From an uncultured Rhodospirillaceae bacterium (GTDB lineage Bacteria > Pseudomonadota > Alphaproteobacteria > Dongiales > Dongiaceae), in contig CAZQLF010000002.1 in NCBI GenBank assembly GCA_964594035.1, positions 1-24,830 of the forward strand: DNA of 24,830 bases, read 5' to 3'. The notes under the pieces are model-generated. The model saw only the letters and a list, made by a program, of their open reading frames with translations. It was not told where the DNA came from and made no database searches. Positions 1,053 through 9,157 of the stretch are shown here, in pieces. Each line of letters opens with the position of its first letter. Positions within the stretch are counted from its first letter, which is position 1. Both the position numbers and the translations under genes were made by a program.

Positions 1053-2249
1053 ATGCCAGGACGCAATGCGCTTTTCATCCCCGGCCCGACCAACATGCCC
1101 GACGCCATTCGCGTGGCCATGGATCTTCCGCTCGAAGATCAGCGCTCGCCGGACTTCCCGGCGCTTACTCTGGGCCTGTTTCAGGATCTGAAGAAGATCT
1201 TCAAGACGAGCACGGGCCAGGTCTTCCTGTTTCCCGCCAGCGGCAGTGGCGGCTGGGAAGCAGCGATCACCAACACGCTTTCTCCCGGCGATCATATTCT
1301 CGCTGCCCATCACGGCCAGTTCTCCCAGCAGTGGATCGAGCTGTGCCGCCGGCACGAGATGAAGGTCGAGATCCTGGAGGCCGAGTGGGGCGACGGTGCG
1401 CCGATCGAGCGCTATACCGAGCGGCTGGCCGCCGACAAGGCGCATGAGATCAAGGCCGTGCTCATCTGCCACAACGAGACAGCGACGGGTGTCACCTCGG
1501 ATGTCGCAGCACTGCGCAAGGCGCTGGATGCCGCGGGCCATCCCGCCCTGCTCTATGCCGACGGCGTCAGCTCGATCGCCAGCATCGACTTCCGCATGGA
1601 TGAATGGGGCGTCGACCTCGCCGTTTGCGGCTCCCAGAAGGGGTTCATGCTGCCGACAGGCCTCGCCATCGTCGCCGCCAGCCAGAAAGCGCTGGCCGCG
1701 GGCGCTTCGGCAAAATGTCCGCGTTTCTTTTTCGATTTCGCCGACATGATCCGCACCAATAAGGACGGCTATTTTCCCTACACGCCCGCAAGCACGCTGT
1801 TGCGCGGCCTGCGCGCTTCCATCGACCTGCTGTTGGGCGAGGGCCTGGAGGCGGTGTTTGCCCGGCATCACCGCATGGCCGAGGCTGTGCGCCAGGCTGT
1901 CGCGGCCTGGGGTCTTTCACTCTGTGCCAAAGAGCCGCGCTGGTACTCGGATACGGTCAGCGCCATTCGGGTGCCCGACGGTTTCGATGCCAACGACGTC
2001 GTGAAGCATGCCTACCACCGCTACAACCTGTCGCTCGGCATCGGGCTCTCGAGAGTGGCGGGCAAGGTGTTCCGCATCGGCCACCTCGGCAGCCTCAATG
2101 AGCTCATGATCCTGATGGCGTTGGCCGGTTCGGAAATGGCCATGCATGATGCGGGCATCAAGGTGCCGCTCGGCAGCGGCGTTGCTGCCGCGCAGGCACA
2201 TTTCCTCGCAAGCCGCCAGCCGGCCGGCATCGCCCGCGCCGCCGAATAG
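1053..2249 (+). CDS. sgaA: Serine--glyoxylate aminotransferase (class V PLP aminotransferase)
   Basis: LFIPGPTN N-terminus, HNETATGV, DGVSS, GSQKG (PLP lysine) and FRIGHLG motifs. Directly upstream of mtkAB-ppc. Confidence 0.88.
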   Translation: MPGRNALFIPGPTNMPDAIRVAMDLPLEDQRSPDFPALTLGLFQDLKKIFKTSTGQVFLFPASGSGGWEAAITNTLSPGDHILAAHHGQFSQQWIELCRRHEMKVEILEAEWGDGAPIERYTERLAADKAHEIKAVLICHNETATGVTSDVAALRKALDAAGHPALLYADGVSSIASIDFRMDEWGVDLAVCGSQKGFMLPTGLAIVAASQKALAAGASAKCPRFFFDFADMIRTNKDGYFPYTPASTLLRGLRASIDLLLGEGLEAVFARHHRMAEAVRQAVAAWGLSLCAKEPRWYSDTVSAIRVPDGFDANDVVKHAYHRYNLSLGIGLSRVAGKVFRIGHLGSLNELMILMALAGSEMAMHDAGIKVPLGSGVAAAQAHFLASRQPAGIARAAE

Positions 2250-2258
2250 GAAAACGCC

Positions 2259-3458
2259 ATGGACATTCACGAGTATCAGGCCAAGGAAATTCTCTCGGAG
2301 TTCGGCGTGCCCGTTCCTCGCGGCGGTCTCGCCTACAGCCCGGAACAGGCCGCCTATCGTGCGCGGGAGATCGGCGGCGAGCGTTGGGTGGTGAAGGCCC
2401 AGATCCACGCCGGCGGCCGCGGCAAGGCCGGCGGGATCAAGCTCTGCCGTGACGAGCACCAGGTGTGGGACGCAGCCGACGCACTGCTCGGCAAGCGTCT
2501 GGTCACCAGTCAGACGGGCCCGCGCGGCAAGGGGGTCTATCGCCTCTATGTCGAGGCGGCTACCGACATTGCCAAGGAGTTCTATCTGGGCCTGGTGTTG
2601 GACCGCAAGAGCGAGCGCGTCATGGTGGTGGCATCGTCGGCCGGCGGAATGGAGATCGAGGACATCAGCCATGATCGGCCCGAAACCCTGATCCGCCTTG
2701 CTATCGATCCTGCCGTCGGCATGCAGCCTTTCCAGGCGCGTGAGCTCGCTTTCGCGCTCGGATTCGAGCATGGCCAGGTGGCCAAGGCCGTGGAACTCCT
2801 CCTCGGCAGCTATCGTGCCTTTCGCGAGCTGGACGCCACCATGGTCGAGATCAATCCCCTGGTCCTGACTGCCGAGGGCCAGCTTTTGGCCCTCGATGCC
2901 AAGATGAGCTTCGACGACAACGCGCTCTTTCGCCGCCCGCATGTGTCGGAGCTGCGCGACAAGTCACAGGAGGATGCGCGCGAGACGAAAGCGACCGACC
3001 GGGGCCTCAGCTATGTCGGCCTGGACGGCAACATCGGCTGCATCATCAACGGCGCCGGCCTCGCCATGGCCACCATGGACATGATCATGCATGCCGGTGG
3101 CGAGCCTGCCAACTTCCTTGACATCGGCGGCGGCGCCACGCCCGAGCGGGTTGCCAAGGCCTTTGGCCTTGTCCTCTCCGACGAACGGGTCGAGGCCATC
3201 CTCGTCAACATCTTCGCCGGCATCAACCGCTGCGACTGGGTGGCGCAGGGCATCATCCAGGCGCTTCAGAAGGTCGAGATGAAGGTGCCGCTGGTGGTGC
3301 GTCTTGCCGGGACTCATGCCGAGGAGGGCCGGCGGGCGCTCGAAGGCAGCAGCTTTCCCATCATTGCTGCCGACAGCCTGGCCGATGCCGCCCTGAAGGT
3401 GGTCCGTGCCTGGCAGGACAGGCGAGCCGCCCAGGCACCGTTGAGGGCCGCATCATGA
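2259..3458 (+). CDS. mtkA: Malate--CoA ligase (malate thiokinase) beta subunit
   Basis: SucC-fold motifs ([32 protein letters not shown]). MtkA-type [13 protein letters not shown] where SucC has NIFGGIVRCD. Serine-cycle context. Confidence 0.85.
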
Positions 3459-4345
3459 GCGTTCTGCTACATGCCGATACCAGGGTCATTGTCCAGGGCA
3501 TCACGGGCAAGATCGGAACCTTTCACGCCCAGGAAATGCTGGATTACGGCACCAAGGTCGTCGGCGGCGTGACGCCCGGAAAGGGCGGGACCAGCCATCT
3601 CGGCCTGCCGATTTTCAACTCCGTGCGCGAAGCCGTGCGCCTTACCGGCGCTGCGGCCAGCATCGTCTTTGTCCCGCCGCCGTTTGCCGCCGATTCCATC
3701 ATGGAAGCGGCCGATGCCGGAATCCGGTTGTGCGTTGCGATCACCGACGGCATTCCCGCCCAGGACATGATCCAGGTGAAGCGTTTCATGCGCCGCTACA
3801 AGGCGAAGAATCGCATGCAGCTGGTCGGCCCCAATTGCGCAGGCGTCATCAGCCCGGGCAAGGCGCTGCTCGGAATCATGCCGGGCCACATCTACCAGCC
3901 GGGGAATGTCGGCATTGTCGGGCGCTCCGGTACGCTGGGCTACGAAGCGGCCGCCCAGATGCAGGCACTCGGCATCGGCGTCTCCACCAGCGTGGGCATC
4001 GGCGGCGATCCCATCAACGGCAGCTCGTTCAAGGATATCCTCGAGATGTTCGAGCAGGACCCGGAAACGAAAGCCGTCATGATGATCGGTGAAATCGGCG
4101 GCCCGCAGGAAGCCGAGGCAGCCCTTTTCATCCGCAAGAACATGACCAAGCCGACCGTGGGTTACATCGCCGGTCTTACGGCGCCGAAGGGCCGCCGCAT
4201 GGGCCATGCCGGCGCAATCATCTCCGCCTTCGGCGAAAGCGCCGATGAGAAGGTCGAGATCCTGCAGGAGGCCGGCGTGACCGTGGCCCCCAATCCCTCC
4301 GAACTTGGTTCGACCGTAGCGCGCGTGCTCGCGCAGGCGGCGTGA
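3455..4345 (+). CDS. mtkB: Malate--CoA ligase alpha subunit
   Basis: SucD fold (QGITG, GPNCAG, SRSGTL-like [18 protein letters not shown] with phospho-His). MtkB-like [16 protein letters not shown] insert. ATGA overlap with mtkA. Confidence 0.85.
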
Positions 4346-7101
4346 GGGGGAATACGCGGACGGTGACCCGCCAGGCAGCGGGCGCGGGCGCCATGGCAGC
4401 GGCCAAAGGCACCGTGGAACAACGTGATCCCGTGCTCGGGCGCGACGGTTATATCGGCCAGATCATCGATTTTCTCTTCGAGCGGCTGCGCGAGGTGGTG
4501 CGATTGCGCCAGCCGGAAATCGAGGCCTACCTGCTCGACGAGCGCTTGCTGGATGACCTGGCGCCGGCCCTGCAGCTGCGCGCGCTCCAAGCATACGGTA
4601 TCTGGTTTCAACTGGCGTCCATCGCCGAAGAAAACGCCGCCATGCGCGCGCGACGGCGCATTGAGCGCGACGGCGGGCCGGACGCCGTGCCGGGAAGCTT
4701 TTCCCATGTCATCGCGAAAGCCGCAGCAACCGGCATCGAGGCCAGCGCCGTTCAGGACCTGCTGGAACGCGGCCTGGTCCAGCCGGTATTGACCGCCCAT
4801 CCGACCGAGGCCAAGCGCGTGACCGTGCTGGACATCCACCGGCGCATCTATCGACTGCTGGTCGACCTGGAATCGCCGCGCTGGACCCGGGGTGAGCGTG
4901 CCGCCCTTGTCGGCAATCTTCGCAATGAGATCGACCTGCTCTGGCTCACCGGCGAGATCCGCCTGGAAAAGCCGAGCGTCGAACAGGAAGTGGCGTGGGG
5001 CCTGCACTTCTTCGACGAAACCATTTTTGGGCGCATTCCTGAACTACTGGAGCGTCTTGATGTTGCGCTCTCCCGCCACTACCCGGAAACTGTGTTCCGC
5101 ATCCCGCCGTTCTTTCGCTTCGGCTCCTGGATCGGTGGCGACCGCGACGGCAACCCCTTCGTCACCGCCGATGTAACGCGTCATGCGCTTGCGAGCAGCC
5201 GGGAAGCCACGCTCCAGCATTACCGCAATGAGATATCGGGGTTACTGCGCAGTCTGAGCGTAGCAGCTCATAGCGTCAGCGTGCCTTCAGCCTTTCTCAC
5301 GCGCCTGGAGACAGCACTCGAGCGTAGCGGAAAGCGCGGGGCCATCGAGGCGCGCAATCCGGGGGAAGTATTCCGGCAGTTCCTGAATTGCATCAACGGC
5401 CGGCTCGAGGCGAGGGGGCCAGCCGCCTACCAGCATCCCGACGAACTCGTCGCCGATCTTTTGGCCCTCGAGGAAGGTCTCGCAGGCGCGCGCTGTACGG
5501 GCCTGGCGCGCAGCCTTGTGCGGCCGGTGCGCCGCCAGGCCGAAACCTTTGGCTTCTGCGCTGCCAGCCTCGACATTCGCCAGAATGCCAAGGTGACCAA
5601 TCGCACGCTGCAAGCGATCTGGCGGCAAAGTCACAACGACCGCGAACCGCCTGCGGCCGACAGCGATGTATGGAAGGCCTGGCTGACGGCCGAATTGGCC
5701 CGCCCGCTCGACGGACTGCCTGCGTTCGAGGGCCTGTCGGAGGAAGCCGCGGAGGCGCTCAGCGTGTTTCGCCTGATGCGCGAGGAGGCCGCGAAGGATC
5801 GGACTTCGCTCGGTGCCTTCATCCTCAGCATGACGGCACGGGCCACCGACATTCTCGGGGTCTTCCTGCTAGCGAAATATGCTGGCCTTTTTGCCGATAG
5901 TCAGGGGATCGAAAGCTGCAGCATCCGTGTTGTCCCGCTGTTCGAGACGATTGGCGATCTCCAGCGCGCGCCGGCCATCCTGCGCGAGCTGCTGTCGCTG
6001 CCGCTGGTACGGCGTACGATACGCGCGCTCGGACGCAGCCAGGAGGTGATGCTTGGCTACTCCGATTCCAACAAGGACGGTGGTTTCCTCTCCGCCAACT
6101 GGGCGCTGTTCAAGGCACAGATCGAGCTTTCGCGCATTGGGCGTCAGTTCGGTATCCAGGTCACATTTTTCCACGGTCGTGGCGGATCGGTCAGCCGGGG
6201 CGGCGCGCCAACAGGCCGGGCCATAGAGGCCCAGCCGGCCGACTCTGTGGCGGGCCGGCTGCGCATGACGGAGCAAGGTGAAGTTGTTTCCGCGCATTAT
6301 GCCAATCGCGGCACGGCGCTCGCCCATATGGAATTGATGGCCTCAAGCGTGCTGAGCCACAGCCTGCGCGGGGCCGCAACACCTCTCGCAGCCAATCCGG
6401 AATTCGACGAGGCCATGGAGGCGCTGGCGGGCGTCTCCGAAGCAGCCTATCGCCGTCTCGCTGACCATCCTGGCCTGGTTGCCTATTATCATGCGGCGAG
6501 CCCGCTTGCCGAACTCGCCTGGCTCAAGCTGGGCTCGCGGCCGACGCACCGGTTTGGCGCACGCACGCTGGACGATCTTCGCGCGATTCCCTGGGTGTTC
6601 GGCTGGAGCCAGAACCGTCATCTCATTCCAGGATGGTATGGCATCGGCACGGCGCTCCATCGGTTTGTGGAAATAAGAGGGATCGCCGGCAAGGGCCTGT
6701 TGCAGCGCATGTTCGGCTCATTCCCTCTTTTTCGCCTCGTTGTCGACGAAGTCGAAAAGACCCTGCCGCTGGTCGACCTTGCCGTTGCCCGGCGCTTCGC
6801 AGCACTTGTCGGCGACGCCGCTTTGCGCGAGGAAATCCTCGGGATGATCGAAACCGAGTACGACCGCGCGAAGCGCTGCCTGCTTGACCTCACTGGCGAA
6901 AACGCACTCCTCGAGCGCTTCCCCAACTATCGCAGCCGTCTCGACAGCCGCTTGCCCATGCTGAACCGTGCCAGCTATCTCCAGGCCGAGCTGCTCGGCC
7001 GCGTCCGCTCGCGCCAGGTGAGCGCGGAACAGGACGAGCAGTTCGTCCCTCTTCTTCTTTCCATCAACTGTGTTGCAGCGGGGCTGGGCTGGACAGGCTG
7101 A
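4342..7101 (+). CDS. ppc: Phosphoenolpyruvate carboxylase (start uncertain: GTG 4342, GTG 4363 or ATG 4393)
   Basis: [46 protein letters not shown] and [10 protein letters not shown] motifs. Confidence 0.96.
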
Positions 7102-7995: not shown

Positions 7996-8031
7996 CGGCG
8001 TGCTGATGGGGACCCGCTACCTGAACAACGT

Positions 8032-8069
8032 GAGCAAGATTGGATCAGTAAACTGATCCGATCTTGCTC
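8032..8069. repeat. 38-bp near-perfect palindrome (18-bp arms, 1 mismatch, 2-nt centre)
   Basis: GAGCAAGATTGGATCAGT-AA-ACTGATCCGATCTTGCTC read directly. No adjacent poly-T tract. Confidence 0.9.
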
Positions 8070-8118
8070 CGGTGGGTCAGTTTAGCCTGTCAGATGTAGC
8101 GGCGAAAGTTGCGGCCGC

Positions 8119-8349
8119 TCAGGCCCGCCTCTGCAGCTGCGCAACTGAAACCCGTCCCTTGAATTGCCGGCTCGATGGGACACTCACCGCGGCAATGGCG
8201 GGCTTGGTCTTCGCCGCGAGGAGCAGCGTAACAGCGGGCGGCGTGATCGCAGCAAAGCGGCCGAGGCGGCGCAGGGTTGCGCGGCGCGACTGGTCGATGG
8301 CCGTATCCAAAGGTGAAGGCAGCACGCCTTCCTGATCTCTGGTTTGCAT
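8119..8349 (-). CDS. 76-aa single-unit twin-arginine-leader-like peptide (putative secreted peptide or RiPP precursor)
   Basis: ATG 8349: MQTRDQEGVLPSPLDTAIDQS-RRATLRRLGRFAAITPPAVTLLL-AAKTKPAIA-AVSVPSSRQFKGRVSVAQLQRRA. Homologous to each unit of the upstream gene. Product assignment is inference. Confidence 0.75.
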   Translation of the reverse strand: MQTRDQEGVLPSPLDTAIDQSRRATLRRLGRFAAITPPAVTLLLAAKTKPAIAAVSVPSSRQFKGRVSVAQLQRRA

Positions 8350-8924
8350 CGGTAGGTTCTTTCTCAGGCTGCCTTGCAAAGCTGAGGTACCAAGACCGGC
8401 TCCTTGAACTGCCGGCTGGATTCCGGGGCGGGACTGACGATCGCCTGCGCGCGCCTGGTGCTGGCCGACAAGAGGAGCGTGACGGCCGGCGGCGTGATGG
8501 CGGCAAAGCGCCCCAGCCGGCGCAAGGTCGCCCGGCGGCGCTGATCGATCATCGCATCGCCTGCCCGTTGCTGGAGCTTCGGCACTGAGACGTGCTCCTT
8601 GAACTTCCGGCTGGATATCGGTCCGATGCTCACCGCGACAGCGCGCTTTGGTTTCCCCGCAAGAAGAAGGGTTATGGCCGGTGGCGTGATGGCGGCAAAG
8701 CGCCCCAGGCGGCGCAGCGTTGCGCGGCGGCTTTGGTTGATTGCCGCTTCATCAGGATGCGGCTGAAGCTTCGACACAGTAACCGGTTCCTTGAGCTGCC
8801 GGCTGGAAGTCGGCGCTGGCGAGACCACGGCCTTGGCGCTCTTGGTCGCTGCCGACAGGAGCAAGGTGACGGCCGGTGGCGTGACTGCGGCGAAGCGGCC
8901 AAGGCGGCGCAAGGCCGCGCGGCG
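8218..8924 (-). repeat. Four coding repeats of a 23-codon block at 8856-8924, 8661-8729, 8469-8537 and 8218-8286
   Basis: Blocks translate RRA(A/T)LRRLGRFAA(V/I)TPPA(V/I)TLLL. Spacing is 195, 192 and 251 nt. Confidence 0.95.
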
Positions 8925-8987
8925 CGCCGGATCGGCCGCATTTTGTGCCGGCGATTGCGAATCCTGGCGCTTCGTGAGGTCGGTCAT
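8364..8987 (-). CDS. 207-aa three-unit repeat protein (tandem twin-arginine leader + variable core cassettes)
   Basis: ATG 8987 with GAGGGG SD 9 nt upstream. Units repeat at 65 and 64 aa. The leader motif is conserved in amino acids despite many synonymous changes, which supports real coding. Confidence 0.82.
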   Translation of the reverse strand: MTDLTKRQDSQSPAQNAADPARRAALRRLGRFAAVTPPAVTLLLSAATKSAKAVVSPAPTSSRQLKEPVTVSKLQPHPDEAAINQSRRATLRRLGRFAAITPPAITLLLAGKPKRAVAVSIGPISSRKFKEHVSVPKLQQRAGDAMIDQRRRATLRRLGRFAAITPPAVTLLLSASTRRAQAIVSPAPESSRQFKEPVLVPQLCKAA

Positions 8988-9022
8988 CGGCGCACACCCC
9001 TCATAGCCTGCTCGACTTTGCG

Positions 9023-9051
9023 AGCTTAAGCCGCCGGGCGCGGGCGAACAA
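9023..9051 (-). promoter_or_regulatory. Possible sigma70 promoter for the peptide genes (TTGTTC-N17-TAAGCT)
   Basis: Motif match between the tRNA 3' end and the 8987 start. Confidence 0.3.
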
Positions 9052-9080: not shown

Positions 9081-9157
9081 TGGTCGGAGTGAGAGGATTC
9101 GAACCTCCGGCCTCTGCGTCCCGAACGCAGCGCTCTACCAGGCTGAGCTACACTCCG
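9081..9157 (-). tRNA. tRNA-Pro(CGG)
   Basis: 77 nt. Acceptor stem CGGAGTG/CACTCCG, D-arm GCTC/GAGC, anticodon arm CTGCG-TTCGGGA-CGCAG, T-loop GTTCGAAT, encoded CCA. Confidence 0.98.

Follow-up and report, generated by a model that had tools for sequence, protein, structure and literature searches.

We analysed a stretch of 24,830 nucleotides (the window) from an uncultured Rhodospirillaceae bacterium (assembly GCA_964594035.1, contig CAZQLF010000002.1), and found an array of four homologous small-peptide units on its minus strand, placed between the tRNA-Pro(CGG) gene and an EamA transporter gene. The units are about 65 amino acids (aa) long. Units 1-3 have no stop and start signals between them, resulting in an in-frame fusion (open reading frame A, ORF A), and unit 4 is a separate gene (ORF B; Table 1). 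Considered together with its relatives, the array is likely an orphan precursor array of a new system resembling those of peptides that are ribosomally synthesised and modified after translation (RiPPs).

The longest form of ORF A begins at TTG 9056, and its GC content at third codon positions (GC3) is 0.77, like that of the adjoining genes. An identical copy of ORF B was found in locus L021. Contigs of four independent rock-metagenome runs reproduced the window sequence without indels, indicating that the three-unit fusion is genuine and not an assembly slip.

All four units have the same order of parts: a leader of the RRATLRRLGRFAAITPPAVTLLL type, a 9-aa basic stretch with AxA at its end, a core of 5-7 aa, the motif SSRxxK and a short tail. 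The leader consensus across units is RRA(A/T)LRRLGRFAA(V/I)TPPA(V/I)TLLL, with an extended form (S)RRATLRRLGRFAAITPPAVTLLL, and the tail after SSR(Q/K)(L/F)K takes the form E-x-V-x-V-x-x-L. The leader (23 aa) and the AxA-ending stretch (9 aa) are fixed in length, and only the core length varies among the window units. The initial annotation of this DNA had described four Ser/Pro-rich cores right after AxA, each followed by an invariant SSR, with unit length changing in frame at the core. All of this was found on the minus strand: the core strings have lengths of 7, 6, 7 and 5 aa, and SSR follows the core in 4/4 units.

Table 1. Coordinates of the array features and of the adjoining hairpin, as window positions
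Feature	Position	Strand	Details
ORF A	8364..8987	(-)	207 aa from ATG 8987, GAGG upstream; P0001 of the gene caller; units 1-3 fused in frame
Unit 1 leader RRAALRRLGRFAAVTPPAVTLLL	8856..8924	(-)	then SAATKSAKA (8829-8855)
Unit 1 core VVSPAPT	8808..8828	(-)	AxA = AKA; Ser at +3; follower SSRQLK
Unit 1 S74 stump SSRQLK + EPVTVSKLQ	8763..8807	(-)	in-frame GTG 8777, AAGGA before it
Unit 2 leader RRATLRRLGRFAAITPPAITLLL	8661..8729	(-)	then AGKPKRAVA (8634-8660)
Unit 2 core VSIGPI	8616..8633	(-)	AxA = AVA; Ser at +2; follower SSRKFK
Unit 2 S74 stump SSRKFK + EHVSVPKLQ	8571..8615	(-)	in-frame GTG 8585, AAGGAG before it
Unit 3 leader RRATLRRLGRFAAITPPAVTLLL	8469..8537	(-)	then SASTRRAQA (8442-8468); in-frame ATG just upstream (..GDAM-IDQRRR)
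Unit 3 core IVSPAPE	8421..8441	(-)	AxA = AQA; Ser at +3; follower SSRQFK
Unit 3 S74 stump SSRQFK + EPVLVPQLC	8376..8420	(-)	then KAA, stop codon 8364-8366
ORF B	8119..8349	(-)	76 aa from ATG 8349; unit 4, frame other than that of ORF A
Unit 4 leader RRATLRRLGRFAAITPPAVTLLL	8218..8286	(-)	then AAKTKPAIA (8191-8217)
Unit 4 core AVSVP	8176..8190	(-)	AxA = AIA; Ser at +3; follower SSRQFK
Unit 4 S74 stump SSRQFK + GRVSVAQLQ	8131..8175	(-)	then RRA, stop codon
Hairpin between array and EamA gene	8021..8080	(-)	29-nt arms; -40.9 kcal/mol for an 86-nt stretch

The units share 61-75% DNA identity and 59-66% protein identity pairwise, with 31 invariant columns in the alignment of the four. Tandem Repeats Finder detected no array at the locus, because the units are too diverged and differ by indels; they were revealed by repeat finding and protein alignment. 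We counted synonymous and non-synonymous differences between the four window units by the Nei-Gojobori method, region by region. The proportion of synonymous differences (pS) was about 0.54, near saturation, and the ratio of the non-synonymous proportion to it (pN/pS) was 0.38 overall: 0.09 in the leader, 0.27 in SSRxxK, 0.43 in the tail, 0.71 in the nine residues before AxA and 0.72 in the core. GC3 was 0.71-0.77 in the unit frames, 0.75-0.80 in neighbouring genes and 0.62-0.69 in overlapping plus-strand ORFs. The near-saturated pS, the low leader pN/pS and the coding-like GC3 suggest that the units are old duplicates kept as protein; selection and GC3 thus argue that they are neither a DNA or RNA repeat nor decaying fragments. 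The plus-strand ORFs over the repeats (e.g. 8592-9029) were rejected as alternatives on account of their lower GC3 and because synonymous and non-synonymous differences are distributed as expected for the minus-strand frames.

Among 18 distinct related units, pairwise identity was 29% in the core, 52% in the pre-AxA stretch, 63% in the tail, 90% in the leader and 92% in SSRxxK, and all length change was confined to the core. Calling the cores hypervariable, as had been done initially, is therefore a relative statement. The term holds in the comparison of the 18 units, where the core stands out (29% vs 52-92%), and fails within the window, where the core differs little from the pre-AxA stretch (0.72 vs 0.71) and contains an invariant V-S.

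The comparison of arrays, which the initial annotation had proposed as a check for core-restricted variation and copy-number change, supports its reading indirectly when made between relatives: the core was the most variable segment and the only one variable in length, and the compared genomes had 2, 4 and 4 units with different in-frame fusions. In an alphaproteobacterial metagenome-assembled genome (MAG; L009), two separate units lie with ispB, tRNA-Pro and EamA at the same site as in the window. In a soil lineage (L001, L002 and L023) there are four units, each with its own GAGAGGAG-ATG start and the last two fused. Another fusion, independent of these, is P0034. Relatives thus differ in the number of units and in how these are fused, and lineages that are only 63-70% identical share the truncated architecture ending in ..SSRQFKEPVSVPQLQ.. 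at one and the same chromosomal site. We also observed that the first unit of L023 (1049-1363) combines the N-terminus of window unit 1 (MTDL.K.Q..QSPA) with the core of window unit 3 (IVSPAPE), and its pre-AxA stretch reads SASTKRAQA, compared to SASTRRAQA in window unit 3. This mosaic suggests recombination or gene conversion among units.

SSRxxK had been regarded as a recognition sequence that brackets the core. By alignment, it is instead positions 1-6, containing the Ser/Lys dyad, of the Peptidase_S74 self-cleaving chaperone domain, of which the window units hold a truncated N-terminus. Relatives of 150-165 aa have the same leader and a short core, then SSRQLK or SSKxLK and about 95 further residues. 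These full-length relatives match PF13884 with 23-33 bits (gathering score 22), and profile position 1 is the first Ser. A tblastn search of phage genomes with their S74 part gave 27 records, in which identity was 47-51% and E 1e-12 to 1e-16; their annotations read tail fibre or 'intramolecular chaperone auto-processing domain'. Phage SSKDYKENK and SSKELKEDK align with SSRQFKEPV of the window, and S, S and K are invariant. The dyad S-x4-K is present in all four window units, with S, S, R and K invariant in SSR(Q/K)(L/F)K, and the same four residues are invariant in 18/18 distinct truncated units. Such conservation points to a continuing role of the stump, perhaps in trans-cleavage or enzyme recognition.

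The window keeps only the first ~15 residues of the S74 domain, and the domain body and C-terminal coiled coil are deleted; about 9 to 20 residues come after SSRxxK, and the unit ends or the next unit begins 12-25 residues past the Lys. Intermediate forms with internal deletions of the domain also exist (126 aa). PF13884 had no match among the window ORFs. Judged by sequence, the window units are not Peptidase_S74 members, because the domain body is missing, though their follower derives from that domain. In the S74-type intramolecular chaperone auto-processing (ICA) domain of MYRF, cleavage occurs between P586 and S587 by the Ser587/Lys592 dyad and requires a trimer, and the beta 'donut' and C-terminal coiled coil are required for both trimerisation and cleavage (PMC8326128). 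Since the S74 body and coiled coil are deleted, the window stump should be unable to cleave itself. In full-length relatives, the predicted S74 cut falls at the exact C-terminal edge of the core.

The leader itself looks like a twin-arginine-type signal, and function in twin-arginine translocation (Tat) is predicted for it. Its motif, SRRATLR in the window and RRKFL, RRDFLK or RRAFLK in the wider family, follows the Tat pattern S/T-R-R-x-F-L-K. The layout is also of the Tat type, with a hydrophobic region (h-region) of 15 uncharged residues (mean hydropathy 1.6-1.7) and then the basic stretch ending in AxA. AxA, which the initial annotation had read as a bespoke bracket of the core, is thus better described as the end of this signal or leader; it was detected in 64/74 distinct family peptides. 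The 90% pairwise leader identity among the 18 distinct units is far above that of ordinary signal peptides.

To sample the family defined by this leader, we collected 33 word-index matches, 12 genome loci and 80 metagenome loci, and scanned 100 loci in six frames; an exhaustive phmmer search gave at least 89 representative clusters at 50% identity. Members have 50-165 aa, and most belong to Alphaproteobacteria of soil and rock, Dongiaceae among them. The leader family matched neither Pfam nor NCBIfam models at threshold. The C-termini are unrelated to each other and include bare cores of 3-10 aa, complete or partial S74 domains, S74 stumps, short Cys-containing peptides and Gly/Asn-rich tails. 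Many members end 3-10 residues past AxA, as in -IVSAK* (...AVA-IVSAK*), -VVISVK*, -VVLSPIVY* (...AKA-VVLSPIVY*), -VAS* and -APIS*, so that a core-sized piece is the only non-leader part common to the family. The first Ser past AxA is at +2 or +3 in 52/64 distinct peptides, and the window cores conform (VVS, VS, IVS, AVS).

Further branches of the family were observed. A large branch with Gly/Asn-rich tails (SGG..GNNGWGNGG.DGSPNG..D..R) was found in L041-L100 (e.g. L089 5890-6228), and its genes adjoin a kinase and a nucleotidyltransferase gene. L010 (8161-8511), L013 (3159-3684), L014 (3350-3742) and L019 (7635-8355) contain tandem pairs of leader peptides with short Cys-containing ends, such as ..SCAAALAPP.., ..NSCAAIIDPFK.. 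and ..GESCIPTP. The CAA(I/L) in these ends resembles the GVCLAAIKAL helix of the S74 domain, and the ends may be extreme internal deletions of that domain. In L011, a MAG labelled Candidatus Udaeobacter (Verrucomicrobiota), the kinase and leader-S74 peptide are amino-acid-identical to those of L006, a peat/soil metagenome contig. A binning error is possible, because all other named family genomes are Alphaproteobacteria (Dongiaceae, Aliidongia).

All-against-all clustering of neighbouring ORFs identified only two conserved neighbours of the family, a kinase (20 independent locus groups) and an NTP_transf_5 nucleotidyltransferase (15). A tblastn search found the kinase homologue (380-390 aa) in 37 of about 100 related loci, mostly 240-500 bp from the leader motif, and in L086 the peptide, kinase and nucleotidyltransferase form a compact operon. 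From its profile matches, the 380-aa protein is a PqqD-like domain, here a RiPP recognition element (RRE), fused to an HprK-type P-loop Ser kinase: among 12 diverse kinases, PqqD (PF05402) matched 9/12 (best E 1.8e-8) and Hpr_kinase_C matched 5/12. The kinases also matched TIGR04352 HprK_rel_A (E 7e-18 and 5e-21) and lasso_PqqD (E 1.5e-7), and we place them as homologous to, but outside, the curated TIGR04352 family. The nucleotidyltransferase of relatives matched PF14907 at E 2.9e-30. The assignments of kinase and leader are drawn from sub-threshold profile matches and synteny.

Eight loci of at least 8 kb have no kinase (the window, L009, L010, L012, L013, L015, L019 and L020). The presence of the kinase at some loci and its absence at others indicate that some genes of the family are clustered and others orphan, a mixture that is common in leader-defined families of RiPP precursors. 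In L006 (1910-6997), a set of genes resembling those for nonribosomal peptide synthesis (AMP-binding enzyme, carrier protein, P450-like gene and short-chain dehydrogenase) was found beside a divergent S74-peptide pair, with a 2OG-Fe(II) oxygenase on the other side; neither the set nor the oxygenase is conserved in other loci.

Taken together, these data suggest a leader-dependent peptide-modification system. The best explanation of the window and its relatives as a whole, which we hold with about even confidence, is a system of leader, kinase and transferase for which the window contains orphan precursors; the end products of the units are probably very short modified peptides. In the cytoplasm, the kinase would bind the conserved leader through its RRE and phosphorylate the conserved Ser just past AxA. 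Decoration of the phosphate by the nucleotidyltransferase may follow, on the model of pseudomycoidin, a lasso peptide in which PsmK phosphorylates Ser and PsmN adds a hexose to the phosphate (PMC6993621; PMC9266682). The twin-arginine leader would carry the modified peptide across the membrane and be removed after AxA. In paralogues with a complete S74 domain, the domain would trimerise and cut itself off before the first Ser of SSRxxK, leaving exactly the core piece. Any enzymes that act on the window units would have to be encoded at other sites of the genome, and since their stump is unable to self-cleave, the product would keep a tail of 15-20 aa or be trimmed in trans.

Two proposals of the initial annotation gain indirect support. 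Modification of core Ser residues by a trans-acting enzyme is in line with the kinase and NTP_transf_5 genes beside relatives and with the position of the first Ser; the modifying enzyme itself is absent from the window. The idea that the cores are the diversified products agrees with the many members that consist of a leader, AxA and a core of 3-10 aa, the most variable segment.

Translation of the fused units also bears on the mechanism. In units 1 and 2, the tail Lys-Glu codons spell AAGGA(A/G), and an in-frame GTG (8777 and 8585) lies 9 nt downstream of this hexamer. These GTG codons are at equivalent positions and are possible internal translation starts for units 2 and 3; the in-frame ATG just upstream of the unit 3 leader is another candidate. 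Because the internal leaders of the fused ORF are no N-terminal signals, units 2 and 3 need either internal starts or a leader role that is independent of position. Position-independent recognition of the leader would favour the RRE reading.

We also considered, more tentatively, a specific form of this explanation, namely a new ribosomal peptide class. Its Tat-type leader would double as the handle for an RRE-kinase, with a PsmN-like transferase, Ser phospho(glyco)sylation in cores of 3-9 residues and, in one branch, S74 as a self-removing follower. The window array would be a 'cable-only' derivative (leader, core and cleavage-site strand), made as a three-unit polyprotein or from internal starts and trimmed in trans, perhaps by full-length S74 paralogues. 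We regard this full scheme as possible and somewhat doubtful.

Several observations weigh against the leader-kinase-transferase explanation. Neither the window nor the syntenic locus L009 (16 kb) was found to encode a kinase or a nucleotidyltransferase, and the enzyme link rests on paralogues in other genomes. The kinases score 65-75 bits against TIGR04352, far below its equivalog cut-off of 200, and the choice of Ser as acceptor is a guess. The window units had no match to the curated Tat-signal models (TIGR01409, PF10518), and one wider-family member scored 11.8 bits against a curated Tat model with a cut-off of 16.7. NCBIfam lasso_leader_L3 (NF033521) scored 18.4 bits against a cut-off of 19, a lead only; the near-match arises because the LxxxGxxxxxT spacing of the leader resembles that of lasso leaders. 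An unconstrained linker, too, would appear as a variable segment separating a signal peptide from a domain. Inside ORF A, the internal leaders are unable to serve as N-terminal signal peptides. When the PDB was searched by sequence with two family profiles, no S74 entry came up, only chance matches to a thiol peroxidase and a designed repeat protein, and the AlphaFold2 model of a full-length relative (24 sequences) had a mean confidence score (pLDDT) of 49, too poor for use. Finally, only four DNA runs, all from rock metagenomes, hold the window sequence.

Part of this evidence would suit ordinary small Tat-exported proteins, in which the leader is a signal peptide and the core an unconstrained linker before a remnant of the S74 trimerisation domain, with no modification. 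The motif (SRRATLR; RRKFL in the wider family), the uncharged 15-residue h-region, the basic stretch ending in AxA, a core that in the window is no more relaxed than the residues preceding AxA, and the lack of an enzyme there all agree with simple export. However, 90% conservation among paralogues whose mature parts are unrelated is not a trait of ordinary h-regions, and members with just 3-10 residues past AxA have no 'mature protein' for export. Together with the strong purifying selection on internal, fused leaders and an RRE-fused kinase and a nucleotidyltransferase as the only conserved neighbours (20 and 15 independent locus groups), this makes plain export unlikely in our assessment, though conceivable at this particular locus. 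An uncleaved membrane helix is a further way to read the leader: full-length members would then show a periplasmic trimeric S74 domain as a signal-anchor protein does, and the fused ORF would be a small multi-pass membrane protein. It has three evenly spaced hydrophobic segments with Arg clusters before each, and S74/ICA domains act beside membrane anchors in MYRF (PMC8326128). But an h-region of 15 residues containing Pro-Pro is short and weakly hydrophobic for a membrane helix, the Arg-rich flanks of successive segments would alternate between the two membrane faces, AxA is kept across the whole family, and the kinase and nucleotidyltransferase neighbours are left unexplained. We consider an anchor improbable.

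The absence of the S74 body, the loss of stop/start signals between units 1-2 and 2-3, and a Shine-Dalgarno-like sequence before unit 4 that is degenerate compared to L001 raise the question of decay, in which repeated partial duplication of an S74-protein gene left non-functional fragments. Such relics should not show pN/pS of 0.09 in the leader and 0.38 overall at pS of about 0.54, nor be free of frameshifts and internal stops with codon-position GC of the coding-sequence type, and the truncated architecture (..SSRQFKEPVSVPQLQ..) would not be expected at the same site in 63-70% identical lineages; decay is thus an even weaker candidate than the anchor. The cyanobactin-type analogy drawn initially, in which AxA and SSRxxK are sites where dedicated N- and C-terminal proteases excise the cores of a multi-core precursor, fares worst, and we give it hardly any weight. 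Like PatE and other multi-core RiPP precursors, the array does have several cores per ORF that are short, variable and length-polymorphic and lie between conserved flanks, and its copy number differs between relatives. In contrast to PatE, the repeat unit here is a whole gene (leader, core and follower) and not a core cassette: every core has its own complete 23-aa leader, none is shared, and the units are separate genes in relatives. PatA/PatG proteases and a heterocyclase are lacking, and neither the window nor the surroundings of about 100 related loci showed a conserved protease, subtilisin-type or other. No cyanobactin precursor model of Pfam or NCBIfam matched at E up to 10, and SSRxxK is homologous to the S74 catalytic motif.

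The leader-kinase-transferase system resembles the phosphorylated or phospho-glycosylated lasso peptides paeninodin and pseudomycoidin (PadeK or PsmK, with the uncharacterised PsmN), since in relatives HprK-like kinase and nucleotidyltransferase families are encoded beside a small precursor gene. A PqqD-type domain is involved in both, and Ser is the known acceptor in the lasso peptides (PMC6993621). The leader also shares the LxxxGxxxxxT spacing of lasso precursors (motif YxxPxLxxxGxxxxxTxG) and nearly reached the lasso_leader_L3 cut-off. However, the conserved neighbours include no lasso cyclase, B or B1/B2 peptidase or ABC (ATP-binding cassette) exporter, and the cyclase and peptidase are also absent from the window, and we therefore do not class the system as a lasso peptide. 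PqqD is fused to the kinase here, the leader has twin-arginine features in addition, and the conserved Ser is near the N-terminal end of the core, being C-terminal only in some members. The system resembles the PsmK/PsmN cassette (NCBIfam 'HPr-rel-A system') detached from its lasso context and joined to a Tat-like leader plus, in one branch, a phage S74 domain that has been domesticated.

That domain has the Ser(i)/Lys(i+5) dyad of S74 in phage tail fibres, endosialidases and MYRF, and the full-length paralogues are 47-51% identical to phage tail-fibre C-termini. It differs from the phage S74 in that it follows a 4-9 aa stretch after a signal-like leader, with no fibre or beta-helix to fold. 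Precursors with NHLP/Nif11-type leaders and prochlorosins are leader-defined families with many scattered paralogues. The family described here is like them in having one conserved leader, diverse cores and several copies per genome, some beside enzymes and others orphan; it differs in its unrelated leader sequence, its other enzymes and the lack of a C39-peptidase exporter among the genes seen. Some Tat signal peptides have dedicated cytoplasmic binding proteins, as in TorA/TorD, and bufferins are RiPPs that carry export signal peptides. By comparison, the export-type signal here could also be what a cytoplasmic maturation factor grips, the peptide being exported once it is modified, but binding would be done by a PqqD-type RRE that belongs to a kinase, and the cargo would be a peptide of a few residues, not a cofactor-containing enzyme.

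The window genes other than the array are housekeeping genes. Their order is serine-glyoxylate-type aminotransferase, malate thiokinase-like subunits and PEP (phosphoenolpyruvate) carboxylase, then EamA, the array and tRNA-Pro(CGG), then ispB, glyQS, ppdK and meaB. The run at 1053-7101 (class-V aminotransferase, two succinyl-CoA-ligase-like subunits of the malate thiokinase type and PEP carboxylase) is typical of the serine cycle and hints at a methylotrophic or glyoxylate-assimilating alphaproteobacterium. The hairpin between the array and the EamA gene is kept in the L001 lineage (about 760-800 in L001), with base changes that preserve the stem. It is possibly a transcript end or a regulatory site, and it is no classical terminator because it has no U-run. 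An Rfam scan of the window found only the tRNA, and a scan for consensus promoters and terminators was uninformative. PADLOC found no defence-system match among the window ORFs, and Pfam and NCBIfam gave nothing above threshold on them. At the tRNA-Pro gene (9081-9157), read depth in the rock metagenome runs was 50-450x compared to ~4x in the flanks, with many loose ends, because the tRNA sequence is common to many community members.

The leader family is uncurated, as we found no curated model for it and, in the literature, no description of the family or the system. Its members seem to be the peptide partners for a widespread gene pair of kinase and nucleotidyltransferase that resembles the NCBIfam 'HPr-rel-A system', and we found no peptide substrate described in the literature for such a pair outside lasso clusters. 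If the proposed explanation is true, it would define a RiPP-like pathway that consists of just two enzymes, a transferase and a kinase that reads the leader with a domain of its own, with very short phospho- or glyco-peptides, possibly signals, as its products. It would also mean that bacteria employ the self-cleaving phage S74 domain as a C-terminal protease that is part of the precursor itself. In the window, the truncated and partly fused array is a natural experiment, showing which precursor parts are still selected once the self-cleaving domain is lost.

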